From contig CBDDLD010000004.1 of assembly GCA_965230605.1 (NCBI GenBank), forward strand, positions 181,768-245,767: a stretch of DNA of 64,000 nt. The letters run 5' to 3'. A program made the position numbers and the translations under genes. How positions within the stretch are numbered: the stretch's first letter is position 1; every line of letters begins with the position of its first letter. This document shows, one piece after another, positions 9-40,542 of the stretch. Source of the stretch: Winogradskyella sp. Lineage in GTDB: Bacteria; Bacteroidota; Bacteroidia; Flavobacteriales; Flavobacteriaceae. The notes under the pieces are model-generated. The model had not been told where the DNA came from and searched no databases. It saw nothing but the letters and a program-made list of their open reading frames with translations.

Positions 9-83
9 CGGGATGTGGCGCAGCCCGGTTAGCGCGCACGGCTGGGGGCCGTGAGGTCGCAGGTTCAAATCCTGTCATCCCGA
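9..83 (+). tRNA. tRNA-Pro (anticodon GGG)
   Basis: Cloverleaf folds by eye. Acceptor cgggatg/catcccg, D-stem gcgc/gcgc, anticodon stem cacgg/ccgtg with loop ctGGGgg, T-arm gcagg-ttcaaat-cctgt, discriminator A. No encoded CCA. Confidence 0.75.
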
Positions 84-321
84 CAAGTTAAAACAAGAAT
101 CATGCGTAGAGAGTTAACTTTCTTAAGCATGATTTGAAGTTTTATCATAATTAAAACGCTGTTTTAATTTGTAGCAGACACGATGAAAAAGGATTCTAAA
201 AATCTAACTTTATATATCATCTAAAAAGTACAATAAACGGTACTGTTTTTATAGGTTTAAAGCGCTCAAAATCGTAAATTTGTAGGTACACAAATTGCCC
301 TCCGGGCGTTAACTAAATCAG

Positions 322-12759: not shown

Positions 12760-13700
12760 ATTGATATAACTATGTTCAACAAAGAAGTAAAATCAATAAT
12801 GGACTTAGTACAGGCGTTCCCAGACGAACAATCCTGTATCGACCACTTGGAGATACTAAGATGGAATGGCAACGTTGTAAGTCCTTTTGATGCTACTTCA
12901 AAAGTCTATAATTGTAAGGGGAATAAATACAAATGTAAGAATACTGGTAAATACTTCAATGTGAAGACGGATACTATTTTTGATAATACTAAAATAGATC
13001 TTAGAAAATGGTTTATGGCTATTTGGTTAGTTACTTCACATAAAAAGGGCATTTCTAGCTTACAATTAGGGCGTGATTTAGGCATAACTCAAAAGTCAGC
13101 ATGGTTTATGTTGCAACGTATTAGAAACTGTTTCGGACTAGATAAAGATGATAAAGAAAAGCTACAGGGTGAAGTTGAGATAGACGAAACTTATGTAGGT
13201 GGTAAATCTTCAAACAGAAGTGCAAAGGTTAGAGCGGACAAATCAGAAGAAACAAAAGAAAAGTATAAGAAATCAGCCGTTTTAGGAATGGTTGAACGTG
13301 ATGGCGATGTTAGAGCAATACATGTTGTTGACGCAACAGAATTATCTTTAGTACCACCAATAGTAAATAACATTTCATTTGATGCTAAGATATATTCGGA
13401 CGAATTGAGGTCATACAGTAAGTTAGAACGAGTTTACGACCACCAAACAGTTAAGCACGGACAAGGCGAGTATGTAAGAGGGAGAGTATCTACAAACTCA
13501 ATAGAGAGCTTTTGGGCGTTATTAAAAAGAGGTATTTACGGGATCTATCATTTTACTTCTAAAAAGCATTTGCAACTTTACGTTGATGAGTTTGTGTTTA
13601 GATATAACACAAGAAAAGGAACTGAGGGACAAAGATTTAATTTACTTTTACAAAACATTGAAAACAGAATTACATATACAGAATTGATAAATGGCTAAGA
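12760..13700 (+). mobile_element. IS1595-family insertion sequence (ends not resolved), possibly carrying a downstream passenger gene
   Basis: The transposase gene is present. Terminal inverted repeats and target-site duplications could not be located by eye, so the boundaries are approximate. Confidence 0.4.
12772..13698 (+). CDS. IS1595 family transposase (N-terminal zinc-ribbon plus DDE_Tnp_IS1595 domain)
   Basis: The LRWNGNVV.P....YNCKG.KYKCKNTGK.FNV..DTIFDNTKIDLRKWFMAIWLVTSHKKGISSLQL.RDLGITQKSAWFM motif matches the IS1595/ISXO2 transposase N-terminus. The VEIDETYVGGK motif marks the start of the DDE domain. Confidence 0.85.
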   Translation: MFNKEVKSIMDLVQAFPDEQSCIDHLEILRWNGNVVSPFDATSKVYNCKGNKYKCKNTGKYFNVKTDTIFDNTKIDLRKWFMAIWLVTSHKKGISSLQLGRDLGITQKSAWFMLQRIRNCFGLDKDDKEKLQGEVEIDETYVGGKSSNRSAKVRADKSEETKEKYKKSAVLGMVERDGDVRAIHVVDATELSLVPPIVNNISFDAKIYSDELRSYSKLERVYDHQTVKHGQGEYVRGRVSTNSIESFWALLKRGIYGIYHFTSKKHLQLYVDEFVFRYNTRKGTEGQRFNLLLQNIENRITYTELING

Positions 13701-14647
13701 AATTAAAAGCAACCCATGAGGGTAAATTAAAAATAGGAGAAACAGAACTTAATGTTGCTGTTTTAGAAGATGGCACAAGAGTAATAACTCAATCTGCTGT
13801 ATTTAAGGCATTTGGAAGAACTAAAAGAGGTAGGGCAAAAAGTGATGTTAGGGTGCTCAATAGACCAGCTTTTGTTGATGCAAAAAACCTACAACCTTTT
13901 ATTGATGAGGGATTAGAGGAGGTGCTCAACCTGATAGAGTATAAGTCTAAAAGTGGAGTTGTGACAGAAGGTTATAATGCAGAAATACTACCTAGATTAT
14001 GTAAGCTTTACTTAGATGCAAGGAATAGTATGAGTTTAGTTAAGCAGCAACTTCCTTTAGCAAGGGCTAGTGAAGTTTTGCTTATTGCACTATCTAAAGT
14101 TGGTATTACTGCACTAGTAGATGAAGCTACTGGATATCAGTATGAAAGAGAAAGGCACGAATTACAGAAGATACTTAAACAGTATATCGCAGAGGAGCTA
14201 TTACCTTGGCAAAAAACATTTCCAGATGAGTTTTACATTCAAATATTTAGATTAAAAGGATGGGAGTATAATGCTCAAACAATAAAGAAAAGACCAGGTG
14301 TTGTAGGTCATTGGACTAATAATTTAATATACAAGCAATTACCTAAAGGTGTATTAAATGAGCTAAAAAGTAAAACGCCAAAAAGTGATGCTGGTAACTA
14401 CACCGCGAGGTTTTTTCAATCTTTAACTCCTGAAATAGGAAGCCCTCATTTACAAAATCAACTTGTCTCTGTAATAACACTAATGAAAGTATCAAGAGAC
14501 TGGGAAGATTTTATGAGGAACTTTAATAAACTATATGGGCAAACTGAAATTGAGTTTCCTAATAATGATGAAAAAAAAAATGAATTAAGCAATTTCAATA
14601 AAAATCTAAAAAAAGGATTAGGATGGAATCCTAAAGATAGCGAATGA
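13691..14647 (+). CDS. Phage-associated hypothetical protein (P63C-domain-like)
   Basis: Its start overlaps the transposase stop by 8 nt (ATGGCTAAG within AATGGCTAA), indicating translational coupling. The N-terminal region resembles P63C-type phage proteins. This is recalled from memory and could not be verified. Confidence 0.4.
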   Translation: MAKKLKATHEGKLKIGETELNVAVLEDGTRVITQSAVFKAFGRTKRGRAKSDVRVLNRPAFVDAKNLQPFIDEGLEEVLNLIEYKSKSGVVTEGYNAEILPRLCKLYLDARNSMSLVKQQLPLARASEVLLIALSKVGITALVDEATGYQYERERHELQKILKQYIAEELLPWQKTFPDEFYIQIFRLKGWEYNAQTIKKRPGVVGHWTNNLIYKQLPKGVLNELKSKTPKSDAGNYTARFFQSLTPEIGSPHLQNQLVSVITLMKVSRDWEDFMRNFNKLYGQTEIEFPNNDEKKNELSNFNKNLKKGLGWNPKDSE

Positions 14648-27622: not shown

Positions 27623-28270
27623 TTATTTAAGTAATACTTTACGTATCATAGTCATAAAATTATCTATAGGATACGAACTTTTCATTTCTTTCATACTCGT
27701 CATAGCACCTTTACCTGCATCTTCAATAAAAACAGCAAGATCTCTTGCATCTATAGTAGCATCTAATTCATTATAATCCTGTGCTTCTTGGATAACTCCG
27801 GTAATGAGTTCTATAACCATCTTTTCTTTGTTATAGATCGCTGTTCTAATTTTTTCACTATGCTCAGCCATTTCACTACCTAGATTACAAGCCATGCATC
27901 CCATTTGACAATCCATGTCATTCTTCAGAACATTATATCTGTATTCATGAAAATCTAAAAGGCGTTGTTTAGGAGAAATACTTGTATTAAGTAAAATTTC
28001 TTTGGCAGGCGTAAACTGTAAATTAAAATAGCGCTCAATAGCTTTTACAGTAAAATCCTCTTTACTATCAAAATAAAAATAGAAAGACCCTTTAGGAATA
28101 CCTGCTGCTTTTACAATGTCATTTACACTGGTAGCATTGTATCCTTTAGACCATAACAAAGGCATGCCTTTATCTAAAAGGGCATCTGCTTTAATATCGT
28201 GTTTAAGGGTATTAGCCATCTGATTTTTTAATAGGGTACAAAAATATGACCACTCGTCTAGTAAATCCAA
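27623..28270 (-). CDS. TetR/AcrR family transcriptional regulator
   Basis: N-terminal HTH (GYNATSVNDIVKAAGIPKGSFYFYF). The ORF as drawn starts with TTG. An ATG (MANTLKHD) about 51 nt downstream, near 28219, is the more likely start. Confidence 0.8.
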   Translation of the reverse strand: MDLLDEWSYFCTLLKNQMANTLKHDIKADALLDKGMPLLWSKGYNATSVNDIVKAAGIPKGSFYFYFDSKEDFTVKAIERYFNLQFTPAKEILLNTSISPKQRLLDFHEYRYNVLKNDMDCQMGCMACNLGSEMAEHSEKIRTAIYNKEKMVIELITGVIQEAQDYNELDATIDARDLAVFIEDAGKGAMTSMKEMKSSYPIDNFMTMIRKVLLK

Positions 28271-28540
28271 ATCTTAGGTGTTAAATTTTTTATAATGCAA
28301 CTTAAAGCCCTGTGTATAAGCCAAAAGTTTGATTAAAAATTTGGATTTATCTATAAAATAATAGCATATTTGCATCCGTATGAGAAAAACAATAGTACAT
28401 AGGGCACCGATTTCACTGAATTGTCAGTGGGATTATCGTGGGATGAGTGAATCTTTTCCCGGGAAAAGGACGTTATGTGACTATTTTTAATCATTTTTAG
28501 AGAATGAATTAAGTTAAAAACCGAAATAGATACAAGCGTC

Positions 28541-28572
28541 CAAGAATATTGGGCGCTTTTTTTATGAAAAAA
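28541..28572 (+). terminator. Rho-independent terminator (+ strand) in the long intergenic region
   Basis: AGCGTCCAAgaataTTGGGCGCTttttttt, a 9-bp stem containing one G-U pair followed by T7. Confidence 0.6.
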
Positions 28573-28924
28573 AATGAATGATTTTGAAACTGAATCGTAA
28601 AAACTAAAATAATAGACTTTGAAGTATAAGCAATTGGGAGACAGACTATTGCCAAACTACTTAAGAATCTGCATATAAGCGGACAGGAATTCCTTTATCT
28701 AAAAATAAGTTTAACTAATTGATAATCAATAAATTAAATGAAAATTTTATTTGTTTTTTAAAAAATTGTTTTCATATTTGCACCGCAGTTTTAAATAAAA
28801 GCTGAATTAAATATTAATTAAAATAAGAAGCCATGCTAACGCATAAGATCATTATGAATTTAAGTTGTGACCTCGAGTCATTTATTAGGCTTCGGTATTA
28901 TTTGTAGAATTACTTTCCAAATAA

Positions 28925-28968
28925 GAATCCGAAGCAAACCCAACTGTTTCGGATTTTTTATTCCTAAC
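28925..28968 (+). terminator. Hairpin plus T-run (candidate terminator, + strand)
   Basis: AATCCGAAgcaaacccaactgTTTCGGATTtttt, an 8-bp stem. Confidence 0.4.
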
Positions 28969-29050
28969 ATTTAGAATATCAATATCTGATCAGTTATAAG
29001 AACTACTATATGTGGTGTCTTTTAACAGTAACAATTTATGAATAAACAGA

Positions 29051-29584
29051 ATGGAAAATAATTTAAATAACAACTATTTGTTTCAGGCTTTAGATGCCTA
29101 TCCGTATGAATTAGAGCAGACTTTAGAAGCGTTAAACTATGCCTTATCATACAATCCAAAAGATGCACATGCATTATGGTTAATGGGTAGAGTATATGCA
29201 GAACAATTAAGAGATTTTGAAGCAGCTAAAAGCTACTTCGAAGAGGCAGTCACACATCAATTAGAGCTGACGAAGATTTATCCGTATTACATACTAACCT
29301 TACTATGGAATGAGGATTACAAAGAAGCTCAAAAATTATTGGATTATGCACTAACGCTTAAGAGTTCGGATAAAGCATGGTTACAATTATTACAGGGACA
29401 GCTTTATGAAAGTCAAATTAATTACAAAGCGGCTAAGAGCGCCTATAAAGCAGCTATAAAACTAGCATTAAACAATTGCTTTATAACTCATGTTGAAGCC
29501 GAATTAGGAAGACTTAAAAAGAAAGTTAAACCCAAGAAGAAGAAAACAAAACGCAAGTCGAATAAAAAAAGAAAGGAGGACTAA
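29051..29584 (+). CDS. TPR-like repeat protein with Lys-rich C-terminal tail
   Basis: TPR-like A/Y/L periodicity. C-terminus KKKVKPKKKKTKRKSNKKRKED. Confidence 0.45.
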   Translation: MENNLNNNYLFQALDAYPYELEQTLEALNYALSYNPKDAHALWLMGRVYAEQLRDFEAAKSYFEEAVTHQLELTKIYPYYILTLLWNEDYKEAQKLLDYALTLKSSDKAWLQLLQGQLYESQINYKAAKSAYKAAIKLALNNCFITHVEAELGRLKKKVKPKKKKTKRKSNKKRKED

Positions 29585-29621
29585 AAATCGGCAAATTTCG
29601 GTTTGCCGATTTAAAAGCAAA

Positions 29622-29703
29622 GGGAATGCGTCCACGTTGGAGAGTGGAGCCAGTCTGTAAAACTGGTGCCTTGGCTGAATAGGTTCGAATCCTATGATTC
29701 CCA
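29622..29703 (+). tRNA. tRNA-Tyr (GTA), class II with long variable arm, non-canonical C8
   Basis: Acceptor gggaatg/gattccc (6 of 7 pairs), anticodon stem ccagt/actgg with loop ctGTAaa, variable arm tgccttggctgaat, T-arm atagg-ttcgaat-cctat, discriminator A. Confidence 0.6.
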
Positions 29704-29708
29704 CAAAA

Positions 29709-29780
29709 GCATCTGTAGTGTAATTGGTAACATAGTAGACTTCCAATCTGCAGTTTCGGGTTCGAGTCTCGACAGGTGCT
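29709..29780 (+). tRNA. tRNA-Gly (TCC)
   Basis: Acceptor gcatctg/caggtgc, D-stem gtgt/acat, anticodon stem gtaga/tctgc with loop ctTCCaa, T-arm tcggg-ttcgagt-ctcga. Confidence 0.65.
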
Positions 29781-29790
29781 CATTTAAAAC

Positions 29791-29862
29791 ACGCTTATGG
29801 TGTAATTGGCAGCATCTGAGTCTCCAAAACTTAGGGTTGAGGTTCAAATCCTTATGGGCGTG
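29791..29862 (+). tRNA. tRNA-Trp (CCA), A1 start
   Basis: Acceptor acgctta/tgggcgt (includes G-U pairs), anticodon stem tgagt/actta with loop ctCCAaa, T-arm tgagg-ttcaaat-cctta. Confidence 0.6.
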
Positions 29863-29868
29863 CAAACT

Positions 29869-29941
29869 ATATCTATGGTGTAATTGGATAGCACAAGAGA
29901 TTTCTAATCTCTGAGTCCGAGTTCGACTCTTGGTAGATATA
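29869..29941 (+). tRNA. tRNA-Arg (TCT), A/T-only acceptor stem
   Basis: Acceptor atatcta/tagatat (7 of 7 pairs), D-stem gtgt/gcac, anticodon stem agaga/tctct with loop ttTCTaa, T-arm ccgag-ttcgact-cttgg, discriminator A. Confidence 0.65.
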
Positions 29942-29947
29942 CATAAT

Positions 29948-30019
29948 AGTATCGTGGTCTAATGGTAAGACACTTGACTGTCTCTCGAGAAGATGCGAGT
30001 TCGAATCTCGTCGGTACTG
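29948..30019 (+). tRNA. tRNA-Asp (GTC)-like, non-canonical T37
   Basis: Acceptor agtatcg/cggtact, D-arm gtct-aatggta-agac, anticodon stem cttga/tcgag with loop ctGTCtc (a pyrimidine at position 37), T-arm gcgag-ttcgaat-ctcgt. Confidence 0.5.
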
Positions 30020-30020
30020 C

Positions 30021-30105
30021 AAAAAGCGCTCTGAGAATACCGGTTATGGTGCTGGGTTCTATAGAAGAAGTATAAGAGGCCATGGCTTTACAGAGCGCAT
30101 TTTTT
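30021..30105 (+). other. 73-nt structured spacer closed by an 8-bp inverted repeat (aaaaaGCGCTCTG ... CAGAGCGCattttt) within the tRNA array
   Basis: The perfect 8-bp terminal stem is flanked by an A5 run on the 5' side and a T6 run on the 3' side. The interior carries the ACCGGT and GCCATGGC palindromes and has no T-loop. Function unknown. Confidence 0.4.
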
Positions 30106-30192
30106 GGAGAGTAGGCAAATATTGGTTTGTTGCGCTCACCTGCTAAGTGAGTTTACTTAGAGGTAATGAAGGTTCGATTCCTTTGCTCTCCG
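30106..30192 (+). tRNA. tRNA-Ser (GCT), class II
   Basis: Acceptor ggagagt/gctctcc, anticodon stem ctcac/gtgag with loop ctGCTaa, long variable arm ttacttagaggtaa, T-arm gaagg-ttcgatt-ccttt, discriminator G. Confidence 0.7.
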
Positions 30193-30198
30193 CTTTAT

Positions 30199-30271
30199 GC
30201 TCCATTAGCATAGTGGTTTAGTGCATCCGGCTTTCTACCGGAAGACAAGGGTTCGATTCCCTTATGGAGTA
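30199..30271 (+). tRNA. tRNA-Glu (TTC), T37
   Basis: Acceptor gctccat/atggagt, D-stem gcat/gtgc, anticodon stem tccgg/ccgga with loop ctTTCta, T-arm aaggg-ttcgatt-ccctt. Confidence 0.6.
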
Positions 30272-30276
30272 CATAT

Positions 30277-30349
30277 TGAGGTGTAGCTTAATTGGTAGAG
30301 CACCATGCTTTTAACATGGGTGATTTGGGTTCGAGGCCCAATGCCTCAA
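30277..30349 (+). tRNA. tRNA-Lys (TTT), T1 start
   Basis: Acceptor tgaggtg/tgcctca, canonical D-arm tagcttaattggtagagc, anticodon stem ccatg/catgg with loop ctTTTaa, T-arm ttggg-ttcgagg-cccaa. Confidence 0.65.
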
Positions 30350-30355
30350 CAATTA

Positions 30356-30430
30356 GCAGGAATGGCGAAAATGGCAAACGCACTTGATTTAGAATCGAGG
30401 AATTTGGGAGTTCGAGTCTCTCTTCCTGTA
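30356..30430 (+). tRNA. tRNA-Leu (TAG)-like with Leu-type D-arm but short (about 6-7 nt) variable loop
   Basis: Acceptor gcaggaa/ttcctgt, D-arm gcg-aaaatggcaaa-cgc (3-bp stem with 11-nt loop, as in tRNA-Leu), anticodon stem cttga/tcgag with loop ttTAGaa, variable loop gaatttg, T-arm gggag-ttcgagt-ctctc, discriminator A. Confidence 0.55.
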
Positions 30431-30434
30431 CAAT

Positions 30435-30508
30435 ACTCCACTAGCCCAAATGGAAGAGGCAACAGTCTTAAACACTGTATAGTCCAAGTTCGACTCTTGG
30501 GTGGAGTA
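30435..30508 (+). tRNA. tRNA-Leu (TAA)-like with Leu-type D-arm but 5-nt variable loop, A1 start
   Basis: Acceptor actccac/gtggagt (7 of 7 pairs), D-arm gcc-caaatggaaga-ggc, anticodon stem acagt/actgt with loop ctTAAac, variable loop atagt, T-arm ccaag-ttcgact-cttgg, discriminator A. Confidence 0.55.
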
Positions 30509-30530
30509 CAATAACCTAGCAGGTTATCTG

Positions 30531-30600
30531 GTGTCTATAGTGTAATGGCTCGCACGGGAGGTATATCCTCCCAGATCAAGTTCGAATCTTGATAGACATC
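30531..30600 (+). pseudogene. tRNA-like unit with truncated anticodon arm (6-bp stem, 5-nt loop tatat), probable pseudo-tRNA
   Basis: Acceptor gtgtcta/tagacat, D-arm gtgt-aatggctc-gcac, T-arm tcaag-ttcgaat-cttga. The anticodon region GGGAGGtatatCCTCCC cannot form a 7-nt loop. The unit is 70 nt. Confidence 0.45.
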
Positions 30601-30605
30601 ATAAT

Positions 30606-30678
30606 GGAACAGTAGCAAAGTTGGTCAATGCAGCAGATTGAAGCTCTGACGATATAGGTTCGATTCCTGTCTGTTCCG
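30606..30678 (+). tRNA. tRNA-Phe (GAA)
   Basis: Acceptor ggaacag/ctgttcc (7 of 7 pairs), anticodon stem gcaga/tctga (27-43 mismatch) with loop ttGAAgc, T-arm atagg-ttcgatt-cctgt, discriminator G. Confidence 0.6.
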
Positions 30679-30842
30679 CAATTAAAATATCAAGCTGGTC
30701 TTGTTGCGTGTTTCGGTATAGCACCATTGTATAAACCGTTGCAGAAATGTATAGCGGATTTATATGCAACCGGACTTGGAGGTTTGATGGTTCACCAAAA
30801 ACCATTACCAGTTCATGTGGGTTCGAATCCCACTATCTCTCA
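30679..30842 (+). pseudogene. Degenerate tRNA-like remnants (a D-arm-like ggtatagcacc; a Trp-like anticodon hairpin tggtt-caCCAaa-aacca with A33; an intact T-arm gtggg-ttcgaat-cccac with no matching 5' acceptor)
   Basis: The 3' portion folds like a tRNA 3' half, and its anticodon loop differs from the upstream tRNA-Trp loop (ctccaaa) by one substitution. No 5' acceptor strand complementary to tatctct could be found. Confidence 0.35.
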
Positions 30843-30953
30843 ACGGGATATGGCGGAAATGGCAGACGCACTAGATTTCGGTTCTAGCGAACAGTTGACA
30901 TCTGTAAAATGTCTCTTTTAGCACAGGTTCGATTCCTGTCAAAGCCACCATTT
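30843..30953 (+). pseudogene. Mosaic tRNA-like unit: Leu-type D-arm and anticodon arm (loop ttTCGgt), then a Tyr-like hairpin (gacat-ctGTAaa-atgtc), then the 3' half of tRNA-Met (T-arm, acceptor caaagcc, discriminator A, encoded CCA)
   Basis: The 5' strand cgggata does not pair with the 3' strand caaagcc. That 3' strand is exactly complementary to the 5' acceptor ggctttg of the downstream partial tRNA-Met. Confidence 0.4.
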
Positions 30954-31003
30954 AGGCTTTGTAGCTCAGTCCGGTTAGAGCGCTGCACTCATAATGCAGG
31001 TCG
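30954..31003 (+). pseudogene. tRNA-Met (CAT) 5' part (acceptor, D-arm, anticodon arm) lacking its own T-arm and 3' acceptor strand
   Basis: ggctttg-ta-gctc-agtccggttag-agc-g-ctgca-ctCATaa-tgcag, followed by the palindrome GGTCTTAAGACC in place of a T-arm. The matching 3' half lies immediately upstream at about 30920-30953. Confidence 0.5.
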
Positions 31004-31451
31004 GGTCTTAAGACCTCCATAAGCTTATCATCTTGTAAAACTGATAGTAAAGTAGTTTGTCACACTACTCAACAAAAATGACAAAAAGTAGTGATTGCCA
31101 ATCGGCCTAATAAATAACATTAGTGTTCAAAAAAGGCAATCTTAACGGTACCTTGATCTGTTGATTTGTTTTGCTTTAAGCAGTGACTTTTAGTGGATGA
31201 TTAAGATAAAATTATAGACAACCTACGATCTAAAATTCACCTTGATAAGAAACAAAAAACTTACTGTAGCGCGCATTACTATGAATAGATCCGTATTGAA
31301 GGGATGATTTGCAATCACACTTTTTTAAAGTAAAAAGATGAATTAAAAACAAACTCAAATGCATAGGTTACTTGCGCTTTAGCATTTGAGTGGCATAAGC
31401 CTCCGTTACAGGAATTGCCAAATATAGATGTTTAATTAAAAACTAAGAACA

Positions 31452-32549
31452 ATGAAACAAGTAAGAATTAATGCAGGTAAAGTTGGTTTAGTCTTCAAAA
31501 AAGGAGATTACCAAAAAGTATTGACAAAAGGTAAATACTTGCTAGGCTTTTGGCAAAAAGTATACAAATACGATTTGTCTAAAGCATTCCAAACACCAAT
31601 AGCATTAGAACTCTTAGTTAAGGATAAATCCTTGGAGGCTATGTTAGATGTTATTGAAGTTAAGGATAACGAGCTGGTATTGGTGTTTGAAAACAAAATT
31701 TTCAAAAATGTATTAACCGCAGGTAGATATGTCTACTGGAAAGGTTTGATTGAGCGTAAGTTTACCAGAGTAGACCTAAGCAAGATCTACATTACAGAGG
31801 AAATTGATAAGGCCTTATTTGGTAAGTACGAGCTTAGCAAATACATTAGAACTTTTGAAGTTGCGCCTTACGAGAAGGCTGTGCTTATCATTGATGATGT
31901 ATATGAAAAAACGCTTGAGGCCGGTACATACCGCTTCTGGAGAAATGATACGTCTATTAAGATTGCTAAAGCCGATTTACGTCAGTTGCAGTTAGAAATT
32001 GCCGGACAAGAATTGTTAACTAAAGATAAGGCTGCGATCCGTATCAACTTTTACACACAGTATAAAGTTACAGATATAGAGAAAGCCCTTTTAGAAAACA
32101 AGGATTATGAAAAGCAATTATACATTGCTATGCAATTAGTATTACGTGCATATGTAGGGACTTACACTTTAGATGAACTTTTAGAGCGTAAGGACAATAT
32201 TGCAGAAGCAGTATTTGAAGATGTTAAAGAAGCTGCATCTAAGTTAGGTGTTACTATTTTGAATACAGGTATTAGAGATGTAATCTTAACTGGTGAAATG
32301 AAAGATATCATGAACCAGGTACTTGTCGCTCAAAAGAGAGCACAAGCTAATATAATCACTAGACGTGAAGAAACTGCATCTACAAGAAGCTTATTAAACA
32401 CAGCAAAATTGATGGAAGAGAATGAGATGTTATTTAAGCTTAAAGAGATGGAGTATGTTGAGAAGATTGCTGAAAAGATTGGTGAAATTACAGTTTCCGG
32501 TAACGGAAACGTTGTGACTCAATTAAAAGAGATTTTCTCTGGAAAATAA
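31452..32549 (+). CDS. SPFH/band-7 (stomatin/prohibitin-like) domain protein, apparently without an N-terminal TM anchor
   Basis: SPFH core with a coiled-coil C-terminal region (AQKRAQANIITRREETAS...). No hydrophobic N-terminal segment is visible. Confidence 0.75.
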   Translation: MKQVRINAGKVGLVFKKGDYQKVLTKGKYLLGFWQKVYKYDLSKAFQTPIALELLVKDKSLEAMLDVIEVKDNELVLVFENKIFKNVLTAGRYVYWKGLIERKFTRVDLSKIYITEEIDKALFGKYELSKYIRTFEVAPYEKAVLIIDDVYEKTLEAGTYRFWRNDTSIKIAKADLRQLQLEIAGQELLTKDKAAIRINFYTQYKVTDIEKALLENKDYEKQLYIAMQLVLRAYVGTYTLDELLERKDNIAEAVFEDVKEAASKLGVTILNTGIRDVILTGEMKDIMNQVLVAQKRAQANIITRREETASTRSLLNTAKLMEENEMLFKLKEMEYVEKIAEKIGEITVSGNGNVVTQLKEIFSGK

Positions 32550-38409: not shown

Positions 38410-40458
38410 TTAACTAATCTTTAAGCCATTAGTGATTTCTTGTTCTTCCGGATTGACAAATACAAGGTCGCCATTTTCATTTTCGGTCATAAGTATCATG
38501 CCCTCGCTTTCAACACCACGTAGAGCTCTAGGTGCTAAGTTTACTAAAACAGTCACTTTTTTACCGATTACCTCTTCTGGTTTGAAGCTTTCAGCAATAC
38601 CAGAAACAATAGTTCTTGTATCTATTCCTGTGTCAACTTTTAAAACTAAAAGCTTTTTTGTTTTAGGCATTTTTTCTGCTTCTAAAATGGTTCCCACTCT
38701 CATGTCGAGTTTTACGAAATCATCAAATGTGATGGTCTCTTTTTGAGGGTCAACCGTTTTGTTTGCAGCTTCATTTGCTTTTTTACTAGCTTCTAACTTA
38801 TCGAGTTGAATTTGAATCGTCTTATCTTCTATTTTTGAGAATAATAACTCTGATTTACCAATTTGGTGAGAAGATGAAATAAGCATCTCCTTTGAAGCAA
38901 TATCGCTCCAGGTATTGTTATCTGAATTTAAAATAGACTTTAATTTATTTGATGTAAATGGTAAGAACGGCTCAGACAGAACAGCCAATGCTGTAGCTAT
39001 TTGAAGTGCCACATACATAATAGTTTGTGTGCGTTCTTCATCTACCTTTATAGTTTTCCAAGGCTCTTCATCTGCTAGATACTTATTACCAAGACGAGCC
39101 AAGTTCATTAACTCTTGAGAGCCTTCCCTAAAGCGATAACGTTCAATTGAGCTTGCAATTACAGATGGATATGCTTTTACATTAGCAAGAGTCTCTTTAT
39201 CTACTTCATTGAGCGCTCCCGGTTGAGGGACTACACCATCATAATATTTATTTGTTAATACGACCACACGGTTAATAAAGTTACCGAAGATGGCTACCAG
39301 CTCATTATTGTTTCTTGCTTGGAAATCTTTCCATGTAAAATCGTTGTCTTTAGTTTCAGGGGCATTTGCTGTTAGAGCATAGCGTAAAACATCTTGCTGC
39401 TCTGGAAATTCTTTAAGATAATCAGGTAACCAAACAGCCCAGTTCTTAGACGTTGACAATTTGTTACCTTCAAGATTTAAAAACTCATTAGCAGGCACAT
39501 TTTCCGGGAGTATATAACTGCCTTCAGCTTTCAGCATAGAAGGGAAGATGATACAGTGAAAGACTATATTATCTTTTCCTATAAAGTGAACCAGTTTAGT
39601 CTCTTTGTCTTTCCAATAAGATGTCCAGTCTTTACCTTCACGTTCTGCCCATTCTTTAGTCGCAGAGATGTATCCTATAGGTGCATCAAACCATACATAC
39701 AGTACTTTACCTTCAGCACCTTCAACAGGAACCGGAATTCCCCAATCAAGATCTCTTGTAACAGCTCTTGGGCGTAAACCATCATCAATCCAAGATTTTA
39801 CTTGTCCGTATACATTAGGCTTCCAATCTTTTTTATGACCCTTAAGGATCCATTCGCGTAAAAAATCTTCATGCTTATTAAGTGGTAAAAACCAATGCTT
39901 TGTTTCCTTAAGCGTAGGAACATTACCTGTAATAGCAGATTTTGGATTGATAAGATCTGTAGCGTTATGGCTGGTTCCGCAGTTTTCACATTGGTCACCG
40001 TAGGCTTCTTCATATCCACATTTTGGGCATGTGCCTATAACAAATCTATCTGCTAAAAACTGATTGGCTTCTGCGTCATATAATTGCTCGGAAACTTCTT
40101 CTACAAACTCATTTTTATCATACAGTGTTTTAAAAAACTCCGACGCAGTTTCGTGGTGTATTTTGGCTGTAGTTCGGGAATAGTTATCGAAAGAAATACC
40201 AAAATCTTCAAAAGACTGTTTTATAATAGTGTGATATTTGTCAACAATATCCTGAGGTGATACACCTTCTTTTTTAGCTTTTATGGTAATTGGTACACCA
40301 TGCTCATCACTACCACAGATGAAGGCTACATCGTTACCCGTAAGCCTTAGGTATCTTGCATAAATATCTGCAGGCACATAAACGCCAGCCAAGTGACCAA
40401 TATGAATTGGGCCATTTGTGTATGGTAATGCTGCTGTGATGGTATATCTTTTGGACAT
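38410..40458 (-). CDS. metG: Methionine--tRNA ligase with C-terminal tRNA-binding (EMAP/Trbp111-like) domain
   Basis: HIGH motif (PIHIGHLAG), KMSKS-type region (GNKLSTSKN), Cys4 zinc knuckle (CPKCG...CENCG), C-terminal anticodon-binding OB domain. The ORF track extends 22 codons upstream to 40524, but MSKRYTIT is the conserved start. Confidence 0.9.
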
Positions 40459-40542
40459 TTTAATAACTTTAATGAAGGCACAAAAGTACATAATATAAAG
40501 GCGATTTAGAAAAAAAATGTACATTTACAAAAAGCACATCTA

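Follow-up and report, generated by a model that had tools for sequence, protein, structure and literature searches.

What are a dozen tRNA genes, packed one after another between two protein-coding genes of a flavobacterial chromosome, doing there? The locus lies in a 64,000-nt stretch of Winogradskyella sp. DNA (the window), for which a first-pass annotation had described about 12 tRNAs with noncanonical features, a pseudo unit and tRNA-like fragments, and had likened them to arrays carried by phages and other mobile elements. ARAGORN analysis of the window did place 12 plus-strand units at 29622–30679, in the order Tyr(GTA) (29622..29704, class II), Gly(TCC) (29709..29781; 59.5 bits by the Rfam tRNA model), Trp(CCA) (29791..29863; 50.1 bits), Arg(TCT) (29869..29942; 58.5 bits), Asp(GTC) (29948..30020; 58.1 bits), Ser(GCT) (30106..30193, class II), Glu(TTC) (30199..30272; 66.2 bits), Lys(TTT) (30277..30350; 57.7 bits), Leu(TAG) (30356..30431; 52.5 bits), Leu(TAA) (30435..30509; 53.1 bits), a unit called as Tyr(ATA) (30530..30601), and Phe(GAA) (30606..30679; 62.3 bits), the last being the final unit in most, not all, related loci as well. 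Ten of the 12 pass the Rfam model at its gathering score, nine with 50–66 bits and Tyr(GTA) with just 32, the reference being 63 bits for a canonical Pro(GGG) at window positions 9–84. Ser(GCT) scored 37.4 bits in a narrower Rfam search, and the Tyr(ATA) unit fell below the model in both the full and the narrower search. This supposed pseudo unit proved to be a His-like tRNA that carries G-1 and has an acceptor stem of 8 bp. These 12 units are genuine, foldable tRNA genes. CCA ends are not encoded, and each amino acid is served by one U34 or G34 isoacceptor. The spacers measure, 5′ to 3′, 4, 9, 5, 5, 85, 5, 4, 5, 3, 20, and 4 nt, that is, 3–9 nt apart from single gaps of 20 and 85 nt; the latter is occupied by a plus-strand, non-tRNA hairpin element (30021..30105) with covarying outer stems, which is also kept between Asp and Ser in three related loci (L020, L022, and L026).

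Comparison with relatives showed that the locus is shared rather than strain-specific, with a content of 0–19 units (median, 10). Of 80 species loci from ~25 named genera, nearly all have the array upstream of an SPFH gene, in a unit order common to the arrays compared, and 58 have the full TPR gene–array–SPFH gene arrangement, with varying outer neighbors. An independent anchor, the DNA motif of a structured RNA (TLE1, described below), retrieved 80 metagenome loci, usually with arrays upstream; among the 56 with more than ~1.2 kb of downstream DNA, the SPFH gene is located 0.56–0.95 kb downstream of TLE1 in 55, the exception (L140) having it at 1.4 kb. The RNA/SPFH module extends to Flavobacterium and Chryseobacterium. 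The array is thus an ancient, vertically inherited chromosomal feature of Flavobacteriales.

Upstream of the array, promoters and terminators were called purely as motif matches. A conserved small-RNA-like unit (28340..28565, plus strand) has a Bacteroidetes-type promoter (−33 TTTG at 28340–28343, −7 CATATTTG at 28365–28372), a predicted structured transcript of ~170 nt, and an intrinsic terminator (28534–28558) followed by a T-run. The unit is kept in 60 of 80 loci, where its helices covary, indels among loci break its 36-aa ORF, and an Rfam search returned no match for it; its synteny suggests that it belongs to the module. A putative operon promoter on the plus strand (28750..28780; −33 TTTG at 28750–28753, a 19-nt spacer, and −7 CATATTTG at 28773–28780) is one of just two sites of this type on that strand between 28200 and 31460, and the conserved upstream block stops in this region in most loci. 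A simple scan detected no plus-strand terminator from 28560 through the whole SPFH gene, and a motif scan found no promoter-like site inside the leader at 31000..31451. Transcription from the Bacteroidetes-type promoter near 28773 would yield a single long precursor carrying the TPR gene, the array, a tRNA-mimic leader, and the SPFH gene. Homologs of the TPR protein (177 aa; 29051..29584, plus strand; Pfam TPR repeats; Lys/Arg-rich C-terminal tail) are encoded in front of the array in 58 of 80 loci, and all 58 share the basic tail (9–22 K/R within the last 40 residues). Between this gene and the first tRNA, 9 nt from the latter, the sequence reads as a conserved plus-strand hairpin, atcggcaaa-tttcgg-tttgccgat (29587..29612), a candidate processing signal or weak terminator; the stretch 29560–29614 is 82–94% identical in L012, L015, L017, L018, L021, L024, and L032.

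Downstream of the array, the region 30680–31016 had been read as tRNA fragments. Its tRNA-like character was upheld, but it is not debris: it is the most conserved part, formed of covarying tRNA-mimic structures. A structured RNA comes first, and after it two modules in tandem, each with a T-arm, a closed 7-bp acceptor-like hairpin, and a D-arm. The structured domain, tRNA-like element 1 (TLE1; 30690..30833, plus strand), is present in 78 of 80 genome loci, tRNA-free loci included. Its helix P1 (30690–30699 with 30769–30779) encloses P2 and P3 and is followed on the 3′ side by hairpin P4 (loop ..ACCAAAA..), a variable-arm-like hairpin, and a perfect T-arm (30817–30833). RNAalifold predicted 40 pairs, 25 of which show compensatory changes; 96.9% of cells are paired, versus 37–46% with slid partners, and 0 of 500 shuffles matched the observed values. 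TLE1 belongs to no Rfam family. The first module (30834..30869, plus strand) consists of the acceptor-like hairpin J1 (30834–30839 with 30845–30850), TG, and a D-arm (30853–30869), and J1 covaries (49 distinct stems in 90 loci, with 4–6 pair types per position). It is joined by the TLE2 body (30870..30939, plus strand), with a Leu-like anticodon arm (TTTCGGT), a long variable arm, and a second T-arm (30923–30939); TLE2 scores 29.7 bits by the Rfam tRNA model with a broken acceptor stem, and resembles a class II tRNA-Leu region of T4-like Aeromonas phages (78.8–83.8% identity). The second module (30940..30999, plus strand) comprises hairpin J2 (caaagcc at 30940–30946, loop ACCAttta, and ggctttg at 30955–30961; 59 distinct stems in 88 loci), TA, a D-arm (30964–30981), and an anticodon arm (30983–30999; loop CTCATAA), and its region matches tmRNA_permuted at 22.2 bits. 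The remaining leader (31000..31451, plus strand), conserved in cross-genus alignments up to the SPFH start codon, contains a near-invariant AAGCTTATCATCTTGTAAAACTGATAG at 31021–31047 and a small hairpin plus T-run at ~31300–31335. The tRNA-mimic RNA that adjoins the array and the SPFH gene is conserved and apparently undescribed.

The gene behind this leader (31452..32549, plus strand) encodes a 365-aa SPFH/Band 7 "slipin family" protein (Pfam Band_7) with no detected membrane segment; homologs were found in 449 stretches of GTDB species genomes and number 6074 proteins. Its AF2 model shows an SPFH domain (a "shoulder") preceded by three N-terminal beta repeats and followed by C-terminal helices. 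Proteins of the SPFH type assemble into large cages. Rather than serving translation, the tRNAs and the mimic leader might act as ligands, cargo, or regulators of a ribonucleoprotein that the SPFH protein and the K/R-tailed TPR protein would form, a bacterial Ro60/Y RNA or vault analog in tRNA quality control, sequestration, or stress sensing. Such a role would account for the linkage of mimic RNA and SPFH gene, for the conserved basic tail, and for the persistence of the mimic RNA where all tRNAs are lost (L008, L033, and L076). The modules also share the architecture of YrlA, a Y-RNA-like RNA with T-arm, closed acceptor stem, and D-arm (PMC4201824). The YrlA matches are weak, however: one spans 30810–30872, and the other aligns model positions 30–81 to 30922–30981 with 28.9 bits, far under the gathering score of 69, leaving the Ro-binding part of the model unaligned; a scan of 30 window ORFs (of 36 of at least 200 aa) revealed no TROVE/Ro60 gene. 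On the protein side, Foldseek matched the SPFH part to stomatin, HflK, and prohibitin, and of the 50 matches listed, major vault protein is alone in aligning over the whole length (~400 columns), although with TM-scores of just 0.33–0.36 and with no vault repeat recognized by Pfam. The TPR gene was not detected in the Flavobacterium/Chryseobacterium subset, and the correct discriminators and anticodons of the tRNAs would be left unexplained. A ribonucleoprotein role is possible but unlikely.

Whether the tRNAs are functional at all bears on a second alternative, namely, that they are the neutrally decaying relic of an old phage-derived array, with present-day function confined to the SPFH gene and to the leader, which would act as a cis-regulatory 5′ region or a processing platform for the SPFH mRNA. 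Most of the odd features first reported are real: A1 in Trp and Asp (both A1–U72), Arg (all-A/T acceptor stem, atatcta/tagatat), and Leu(TAA); U1 in Lys (U1–A72); C8 in Tyr; and U37 in Asp (loop CTGTCTC), Glu (CTTTCTA), and the His-like unit (GTATATC). The supposedly divergent T-loops, in contrast, are mostly canonical (TTCGAAT/TTCGATT). In addition, Ser carries A8, and the Leu tRNAs are only 76 nt (TAG, class-I-like) and 75 nt (TAA), with short variable regions; bacterial tRNA-Leu is class II. Individual window units look damaged, including Tyr (32 bits, G.G mismatch at the base of the acceptor stem), Phe (G73, and a G.A mismatch in the anticodon stem), and the His-like unit (ATA anticodon).

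Across orthologs, these oddities are conserved traits rather than random decay. U37 occurs in 55 of 56 Asp and 51 of 51 Glu orthologs, which counts as a departure from housekeeping copies when judged against the usual purine at position 37, as no housekeeping Asp or Glu tRNA of these genomes was retrieved. A8 is found in 33/34 Ser(GCT), U1 in 38/38 Lys(TTT), A1 in 12/17 Arg(TCT), and C8 in 25/51 Tyr(GTA) orthologs; the GTATATC loop of the His-like unit is identical in 9/9, and Phe(GAA) has A73 in 41/49, the window copy having G73. Lineage-conserved deviations thus include U37 in Asp and Glu, U1–A72 in Lys, Met, Val, and Ile, and A8 or C8 in Ser tRNAs. Discriminators follow identity rules: G73 in Asp, Trp, Ser, and Asn; A73 in Leu (both window copies included), Lys, Tyr, Met, Val, Ile, and Pro; U73 in Gly and Cys; and C73 with G-1 in His. 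At 68–88% identity, the ortholog families show 97–100% pairing and 5–18 compensatory pairs each (14/19 pairs in Asp(GTC), 18/20 in Leu(TAA)), values that are biased upwards because ARAGORN calls require a cloverleaf. Compensatory changes have maintained these cloverleaves, and such covariation, like the invariant anticodons and discriminators and the conserved U37, is unexpected under neutral divergence between genera and families.

Array content points both ways. Loss has proceeded unit by unit, leaving remnants and gaps of about one unit; hairpin insertions disrupt units, such as Pro in L071; several window units are imperfect; leader conservation exceeds that of any tRNA; and 16 of 69 loci are down to 0–2 units, so that any benefit of the array must be weak or conditional. 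In L014 and L019, the His-like unit is the sole ARAGORN call. Retention nevertheless tracks the isoacceptor and not the array position: Asp, Gln, Glu, Leu, Phe, and Tyr are each retained in 37–50 of 69 loci (Glu and Leu in ~45) and Arg(ACG) and Lys in 34–35, versus 7–11 for Val, Ile, and Met, which are located between well-kept units, and 4 for Gly(TCC). Neutral decay of the whole array is accordingly still less probable than a ribonucleoprotein role.

The array is also an extra copy set, as canonical Pro(TGG) exists alongside a divergent array Pro(TGG) in L056 and L069, and the essential Trp, Met, His, Asn, and Cys units are absent from most arrays. Its type is phage-like, in support of the earlier suggestion of phage-like tRNAs beyond the housekeeping set: T5-like Vibrio phages carry a tRNA 86.8% identical to the array Leu(TAG), one of them (vB_ValS_X1) has short Leu(TAG) and Leu(TAA) genes adjacent and in the same order, and a phage tRNA array in IMG/VR includes a similar short Leu(TAA); the D-arm sequence of the window Leu(TAA) recurs in phage arrays.

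Phage-like features and the presence of an IS1595-type transposase (12772–13698) and a P63C-domain gene ~16 kb upstream could suggest recent import by a phage, ICE, or other mobile element. This proposal, which would make the array strain-specific, is refuted by synteny, as site, unit order, and immediate flanks are constant across dozens of genera, and is highly improbable. The 30 window ORFs scanned include no integrase; neighboring genes are housekeeping (PEP carboxylase, MetRS, and T9SS parts); GC content is ordinary except at the tRNAs themselves; and searches of phage and plasmid collections with array and leader DNA yielded only short matches the size of one tRNA, while no real match to the leader motifs turned up among viral contigs. 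Practically untenable is an ordinary core cluster with the genome's sole isoacceptor copies, for which synteny far beyond the genus and the decent Rfam scores of most units speak, but which is contradicted by the absence of most or all units from related genomes, by the doubled Pro(TGG), and by short tRNA-Leu, U37, A8 or C8, and U1–A72, features unlike those of bacterial housekeeping tRNAs.

The best explanation, held with somewhat better than even confidence, is that a phage-type back-up tRNA operon has been domesticated at this locus and fused to an uncharacterized tRNA-mimic/SPFH module. RNase P and a 3′ nuclease would free the tRNAs, to which CCA would then be added, and after aminoacylation they would form a second pool of decoders for codons that are already common. 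Codon compensation, as initially proposed, is unsupported, since the array duplicates decoders of codons that the host already prefers (AGA, 0.46; GAA, 0.71; AAA, 0.72; TTA, 0.44). If this second pool were recognized differently from the housekeeping pool, translation could continue once anticodon nucleases, toxins, or translational stress had cleaved or depleted housekeeping tRNAs. L-arrays likewise add supernumerary tRNAs and are inducible under translational stress (PMC8421152), and phage tRNAs with altered anticodon loops have been proposed to escape host tRNases (PMC10264068). Both the family-wide U37 of the Asp and Glu tRNAs and the uneven retention of isoacceptors would be compatible with evasion of anticodon nucleases. 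E. coli GluRS uses A37 as an identity element, and a U37 Glu tRNA may thus charge poorly. A simple back-up role leaves the strict linkage of mimic RNA and SPFH gene unexplained. For Flavobacteriales, the back-up reading would mean that single units are dispensable and have been lost individually in different genera, and that the distal array was recruited to form a fixed structured RNA—TLE1 plus two YrlA-type tRNA-mimic modules—which always precedes the SPFH gene and outlives the tRNAs themselves.

ARAGORN bore out the dense run of tRNA genes described in the first-pass annotation, calling 12 units on the + strand between 29622 and 30679: Tyr GTA, Gly TCC, Trp CCA, Arg TCT, Asp GTC, Ser GCT, Glu TTC, Lys TTT, Leu TAG, Leu TAA, "Tyr ATA," and Phe GAA. 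At 12 units per 1.06 kb in one orientation (+), the run falls among arrays of at least two tRNAs per kb; its spacers are 3–9 nt long, except for one of 85 nt (30021–30105) and one of 20 nt. The array precedes a gene for an SPFH/Band 7 protein of 365 aa (31452–32549, +), which was used to find related loci. A scan for this protein across one genome per GTDB species returned 449 relatives, and the best 80 loci were analyzed. All of these best 80 of 449 belong to Flavobacteriaceae or to unclassified Bacteroidota. The closest SPFH relative is from Winogradskyella (89% identity), and other genera include Wocania, Jejuia, Gaetbulibacter, Psychroserpens, Hanstruepera, Seonamhaeicola, Pontimicrobium, and Hyunsoonleella, as well as Aquimarina, Flagellimonas, Maribacter, Zobellia, Cellulophaga, Dokdonia, Tenacibaculum, and Aequorivita.

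A + strand tRNA array lies 0.4–3.4 kb upstream of the SPFH gene in nearly all 80 loci, and the arrays share a common order: Lys, Ser TGA, Ser GCT, Asn, Cys, Tyr, Gly, Trp, Arg TCT, Asp, Pro, Glu, Val, Ile, Met, Lys, Leu TAG, Leu TAA, Arg, Gln, His, (His-like), Phe, and (Arg ACG). Absences of units are lineage-specific, with gaps about one unit long, and the 69 loci with enough upstream sequence hold 0–19 units per array (median 10).

The "fragments" reported after Phe are not debris; rather, they form the most conserved part of the locus, a covarying RNA. tRNA-like element 1 (TLE1; 30690–30833, in the 155 nt directly after Phe) is 72–85% identical in 78 of the 80 loci, and it is also present in three loci without any tRNA (L008, L033, and L076). 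RNAalifold analysis of TLE1 from 46 loci gave five helices with 40 pairs, 25 of which show compensatory changes; 96.9% of cells were paired, compared to 37–46% with slid partners, and the observed covariation was reached in none of 500 shuffles. The final TLE1 helix is a perfect T-arm, and a second T-arm occurs at 30923–30939. Each T-arm is followed by a 7-nt strand, a loop, the complementary 7-nt strand, TA (or TG), and immediately a D-arm, an arrangement that on the predicted pairing is an acceptor-like stem closed by a loop, present in two modules. Among 157 leaders, the best hairpin was perfect (7/7) in 46%, versus 5.5% when the 3′ strand was taken from another locus. The first closed stem (J1, 30834–30850) occurs as 49 distinct stems and the second (J2, 30940–30961) as 59, with four to six Watson-Crick or G-U pair types at every position. 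These modules are not ordinary tandem tRNAs because TLE2 (body 30870–30939), which lies between the two junctions, cannot form an acceptor stem of its own, and since most J loops are 3–5 nt long, the stems probably stay closed. The TLE2 of the Flavobacterium/Chryseobacterium subset has lost its anticodon arm while the T-arm, closed stem, and D-arm are kept. Just past the second module, the motif AAGCTTATCATCTTGTAAAACTGATAG (31021–31047, +) is almost invariant in the marine Flavobacteriaceae genera. In some loci, its CATCTTG segment is complementary to the J2 3′ strand, which hints at a possible alternative pairing with that strand.

A known RNA close in arrangement is YrlA, a tRNA mimic adjoining Ro60 (Chen et al., PMC4201824). 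Positions 30–81 of the Rfam YrlA model (RF02553) align to 30922–30981, and this aligned part of the consensus consists exactly of the T-arm, loop-closed "acceptor" stem, UA, and D-arm, in the same order. The YrlA of M. smegmatis likewise has a 7-bp stem, is cleaved by RNase P, and receives CCA (PMC4201824); in some of the loci, the 3′ strand of J2 is even followed by ACCA. In contrast, the scores of 28.9 bits for this match and 15.9 bits for the first module are far under the gathering score of 69, and the alignments span only model positions 24–84 of 114, leaving the Ro60-binding part unaligned. No TROVE (Ro60/rsr) gene was found among the 30 window ORFs scanned, the conserved neighbor being the SPFH gene instead. 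The present RNA also differs from YrlA in having two tandem modules behind an extra domain, TLE1, and in its location, which is within a tRNA operon and ahead of the SPFH gene. Permuted tRNA and two-piece tmRNA genes (PMC3978253; RF04321) share the placement of the T-arm, 3′ acceptor strand, and ACCA upstream of the 5′ acceptor strand, D-arm, and anticodon arm, with a short linker between the halves; however, the modules described here are chained rather than forming one permuted gene, and the RF04321 model scored 22.2 bits against a gathering score of 47. No tmRNA was called by ARAGORN, and a non-systematic look for a tag reading frame found none. At gathering score and at E ≤ 10, Rfam gave no family for TLE1, for the small-RNA-like element upstream of the array, or for the 85-nt element within it, and literature searches on tRNA arrays, tRNA-like RNAs, and permuted tRNAs in Flavobacteria turned up nothing relevant. 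The tandem YrlA-type leader tied to an SPFH gene is without an Rfam family or a counterpart in the literature covered.

The tie between leader and SPFH gene was also recovered from the RNA side. When metagenomes were scanned with a 20-base TLE1 motif as the sole anchor, 80 loci were recovered. Downstream DNA exceeded about 1.2 kb in 56 of them, and all of these except L140 encode an SPFH homologue (43–87% identity) 0.56–0.95 kb downstream, usually with an array upstream. By exact-sequence look-ups, a distant subset belongs to Flavobacterium spp. and Chryseobacterium indoltheticum, so the module spans at least Flavobacteriaceae and Weeksellaceae. A Chryseobacterium-type locus (L101; 3797–5451 and 8473–11128, − strand) has genes for RNase T-like exonuclease, RNase H-like (PF04308), and DinB_2 proteins between array and leader; the same locus encodes, upstream, a membrane protein of TPR/SNAP-like type and a protein with the bpX3 domain of MoxR-vWA ternary conflict systems.

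The SPFH protein, annotated as "slipin family," matches Pfam PF01145 at 9e-31 and stomatin structures in the PDB at 2e-15, and Pfam, the AF2 model, and Foldseek agree on a Band 7 domain followed by coiled-coil helices. In the AF2 model (pLDDT 75), three beta repeats of five strands each precede the SPFH domain, and helices form the C-terminal part. The best Foldseek matches (stomatin, HflK/C, and prohibitin) cover the SPFH part only, and among the 50 matches listed, major vault protein was the sole one to align over about 400 columns (E 6e-10, TMq 0.33–0.36). No vault repeat was detected by Pfam, and the protein has three repeats versus nine in major vault protein, so that the model points to architectural resemblance rather than membership. 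The gene upstream of the array encodes a TPR protein of 177 aa (29051–29584, +) with a Lys/Arg-rich tail (29533–29584 in the window); 9–22 K/R residues occur within the last 40 residues in 58 of 58 homologues, a composition that suggests nucleic-acid binding. One TPR subgroup instead ends in WFQNRLNNLL after the basic stretch. PADLOC contained no defense-system model matching the SPFH protein and gave only faint matches to the TPR protein, and NCBIfam gave only weak HflK-like and generic TPR matches. A non-translational RNP role for both the tRNAs and the mimics is a less probable rival to a function of the array tRNAs in translation.

The predicted transcriptional layout would place the array, its leader, and the two flanking genes on one transcript. 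Bacteroidetes-type promoters were sought as a −33 TTTG and a −7 nAnnTTTG separated by a 19–21-nt spacer, and the + strand from 28200 to 31460 contains only two promoter-like sites of this type, at 28365 and 28773; a simple sigma-70 scan, uninformative for Bacteroidetes, gave no more matches than in shuffled sequence. The 28773 site is upstream of the TPR gene, and between this site and the 3′ end of the SPFH gene a simple scan turned up no terminator on the + strand. A terminator-like hairpin (28925–28958, +; ATCCGAA...TTCGGAT followed by a T-run) is located in the 5′ UTR between the 28773 site and the TPR start; it was missed by the simple scan because its loop is 13 nt long, and it may be an attenuator. 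This layout fits a single precursor in which the TPR gene, tRNAs, leader, and SPFH gene would be transcribed together. In E. coli, the thrU-tyrU-glyT-thrT-tufB operon gives rise to such a tRNA-mRNA co-transcript; in it, as in the present locus, tRNA genes precede a protein gene on the same strand with neither promoter nor terminator found in between, an arrangement implying that RNase P or RNase E releases the tRNAs. The two differ in that co-transcription is predicted here, that a 770-nt structured tRNA-mimic leader intervenes, and that the downstream gene encodes an SPFH protein rather than a translation factor. The 28365 site, on the other hand, is followed by an element of about 170 nt, conserved and structured, with a strong intrinsic terminator at its end (28534–28558). 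This block (28340–28565, +), with its own promoter-like site, is found upstream of the TPR gene in 60 of the 80 loci and has covarying helices (CACTG/CAGTG and CGAGGAA/TTCCTCG); the element is probably an undescribed small RNA. A 36-aa ORF within the block was rejected as coding, as indels break its frame across loci.

Within the array, 10 of the 12 units passed the Rfam tRNA model at gathering score (32–66 bits), nine of them at 50–66 bits and Tyr GTA at 32, compared to 63 bits for the canonical Pro GGG tRNA (9–84); for Ser GCT, a narrower search gave 37 bits. The "Tyr ATA" unit failed the model. Most of the peculiarities read from the sequence at first pass reappeared in the ARAGORN structures, including A1 starts (Trp, Arg, Asp, and Leu TAA), U1 in Lys, the A/T-only acceptor stem of Arg TCT (atatcta/tagatat), C8 in Tyr, which also has a G·G mismatch, and a pyrimidine at position 37, seen as U37 in the Asp, Glu, and "Tyr ATA" units; the T-loops, said to be divergent, are in fact mostly canonical. 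Across orthologues, U37 occurs in 55/56 Asp, 51/51 Glu, and 9/9 His-like units in place of the purine of housekeeping tRNAs, and position 8 departs from U8 as A8 in Ser GCT (33/34), C8 in Ser TGA (16/17), and C8 in Tyr (25/51). The U1-A72 start is common to the Lys, Met, Val, and Ile families. Discriminators obey the classical identity rules (G73 in Asp, Trp, Ser, and Asn; A73 in Leu, Lys, Tyr, Met, Val, Ile, and Pro; U73 in Gly and Cys; C73 in His), with the exception of Gln, which has U or A at this position. Bacterial tRNA-Leu is a class II tRNA with a long variable arm; both Leu tRNAs in the window are short (76 nt for TAG and 75 nt for TAA), and the orthologues called (49 TAG and 41 TAA), nearly all 74–76 nt long, are outside this class. 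The unit called "Tyr ATA" (30530–30601, +) is of His type, with G-1, an 8-bp acceptor stem, and the loop GTATATC, which is identical in 9/9 His-like orthologues. It is the sole unit that ARAGORN still detects in two loci (L014 and L019), suggesting that it is retained for some purpose besides decoding His. The non-canonical features are family traits, not damage.

The arrays also contain elements other than tRNAs. The 85-nt gap between Asp and Ser(GCT) (30021–30105, +) holds a non-tRNA hairpin with counterparts in three related loci (L020, 7133–7214; L022, 8072–8153; L026, 8063–8143); in this element of 82–85 nt, the outer stem covaries and the core ATGGTGCTGGGTTCTATAG.AGAAGTATAAGAGGCCAT is conserved. 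Arrays of Aquimarina carry a different element of 72–73 nt after Asp. In another locus (L071, 8149–8251), the array Pro(TGG) is broken in its D-loop and T-loop by two short GC-rich hairpin insertions, which may be miniature insertion elements inactivating single units.

Orthologous units are only 68–88% identical, yet 97–100% of cloverleaf pairs are kept, with 5–18 compensatory pairs in each family; these statistics come from ARAGORN-called units, which are pre-selected for the cloverleaf. Among the 69 loci, Glu is retained in 46 and Leu TAG in 45, and the intervening Val, Ile, and Met in 7–11, so that retention depends on the isoacceptor and not on array position. The kept pairing argues that the units are not decaying freely and thereby speaks against a second, less probable rival explanation, in which the tRNAs decay neutrally and function is left only to the leader and the SPFH gene.

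Many genomes must encode Trp, Met, His, Asn, and Cys tRNAs elsewhere, because their arrays lack them: among the 69 loci, arrays hold Trp in 16, Met in 11, His in 25, Asn in 19, and Cys in 34. The window array has no decoders for ten amino acids, and two loci (L056 and L069) encode a canonical Pro(TGG) beside an array Pro(TGG) that is very different from it. The array is thus distinct from the core tRNA set; its copies are supernumerary and provide isodecoder redundancy without new anticodons. No housekeeping Asp or Glu tRNAs for comparison with the array copies were present in the related loci examined. The range of 0–19 units and the canonical Pro(TGG) alongside the array copy lead to rejection of an ordinary core tRNA cluster. 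Compensation for codon usage, mentioned at first pass as often proposed for such arrays, was likewise not supported and was rejected, as the array anticodons read codons already preferred by the host.

The genomic context argues against the initial proposal of a mobile-element array. The window flanks are ordinary chromosomal genes of a Flavobacteriaceae host (PEP carboxylase, MMPL exporter, LolA-like protein, TetR regulator, MetRS, T9SS parts, TonB-dependent receptor, and others), with a GC content of about 35% and no integrase among the 30 window ORFs scanned. Because the TPR gene is upstream in 58 of the 80 loci while the outer neighbors differ from locus to locus, the array is old and vertically inherited. 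Rather than being scattered as by horizontal spread, the module is syntenic in Flavobacteriaceae and present also in Flavobacterium and Chryseobacterium, which contradicts a strain-specific mobile island; recent mobile acquisition was rejected given this synteny and the shared unit order. An IS1595-family transposase followed by a P63C-domain protein (12772–14647, +), about 16 kb upstream of the array, are the only mobile-element-like genes seen in the window. The methionyl-tRNA synthetase gene (38410–40524, −) is about 6 kb downstream of the SPFH gene and has a homologue near the module in 17 of 80 loci, which is probably plain synteny.

In its sequence affinities, the array is indeed phage-like, as first suspected. 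BLAST against phage genomes returned short matches, among them one with 86.8% identity between the short Leu(TAG) and a tRNA from T5-like Vibrio phages, and Vibrio phage vB_ValS_X1 encodes adjacent 77-nt Leu(TAG) and 77-nt Leu(TAA) in the order of the array. The short Leu(TAA) has a D-arm sequence that is seen again in a phage tRNA array from IMG/VR, and the Leu-like TLE2 body matches a class II tRNA-Leu region of T4-like Aeromonas phages. Thus, the clusters of T5-like Demerecviridae and T4-like Aeromonas phages share with this locus an adjacent short Leu(TAG)-Leu(TAA) pair of 75–77 nt and similar sequence, the class II Leu-like sequence of TLE2, minimal spacers, and interspersed small structured non-tRNA elements. 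In contrast to these clusters, the array is chromosomal with no phage genes nearby, its units do not encode the CCA found in the phage tRNAs examined, and the two are not colinear overall in gene order. Position 37 is A in the phage Asp and Glu tRNAs, so the U37 of the array copies is specific to flavobacterial arrays. The 3′ context of array units (N73-C-A) resembles that of canonical host tRNAs in the loci, which suggests a possible adaptation to host processing. A plasmid collection yielded only two trivial, short, tRNA-sized matches, and the only match of two leader motifs searched in IMG/VR viral contigs was a chance one within a phage ORF; at the motif stringency used, the leader does not appear to be phage-borne in IMG/VR.

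A comparison can also be drawn with L-arrays such as the trn operon of Anabaena PCC 7120 (PMC8421152). Both are dense, in one orientation, and encode roughly one tRNA per amino acid; both provide redundancy for core isoacceptors instead of new anticodons and follow one gene order altered by insertions, deletions, and pseudogenes, and a foreign origin is suspected in both cases. Whereas L-arrays are scattered across phyla and spread by horizontal transfer (PMC8421152), the present array occupies one fixed chromosomal site across an order, and no L-array has been described with a tRNA-mimic RNA and an SPFH gene as its fixed partners. The "tRNA array units" of Tran et al. (PMC4758250) require at least 20 tRNA genes, more than the 12 of the window or the maximum of 19 among its relatives. 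Bacteroidetes are absent from that survey (PMC4758250) and get only a statistical mention in PMC8421152.

The best-supported reading of the locus is a domesticated, phage-type accessory tRNA operon fused to an uncharacterized tRNA-mimic RNA/SPFH module. It retains from the original interpretation the phage-like character and the addition to a housekeeping set, and abandons mobility, strain specificity, and compensation for rare codons. According to this model of a domesticated operon, the array would supply a back-up tRNA pool that is recognized differently from the housekeeping pool. A further and much more speculative proposal, which we regard as improbable, is that the locus encodes an undescribed Flavobacteriales RNP system, in which a soluble, cage-forming, vault-like SPFH protein, the K/R-tailed TPR protein, the YrlA-type mimic RNA, and a private phage-type tRNA pool would constitute an analogue of Ro60/Y RNA or of the vault, for tRNA surveillance, sequestration, or defense against tRNA-targeting attack.

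Supernumerary tRNA arrays are usually seen as cryptic, horizontally moving cargo; the one described here stays at a single site in an order of abundant marine, freshwater, and soil bacteria. Its structural selection, U37 in Asp and Glu, short tRNA-Leu, and isoacceptor-dependent retention make it a natural comparative system for the purpose of a second tRNA pool. Genera that carry the module are culturable, and some, e.g., Flavobacterium, are genetically tractable. The mimic RNA is tied to an SPFH protein, not to Ro60, and if it is true that the two act together, this would extend what is known of the biology of both tRNA mimicry and soluble SPFH assemblies.
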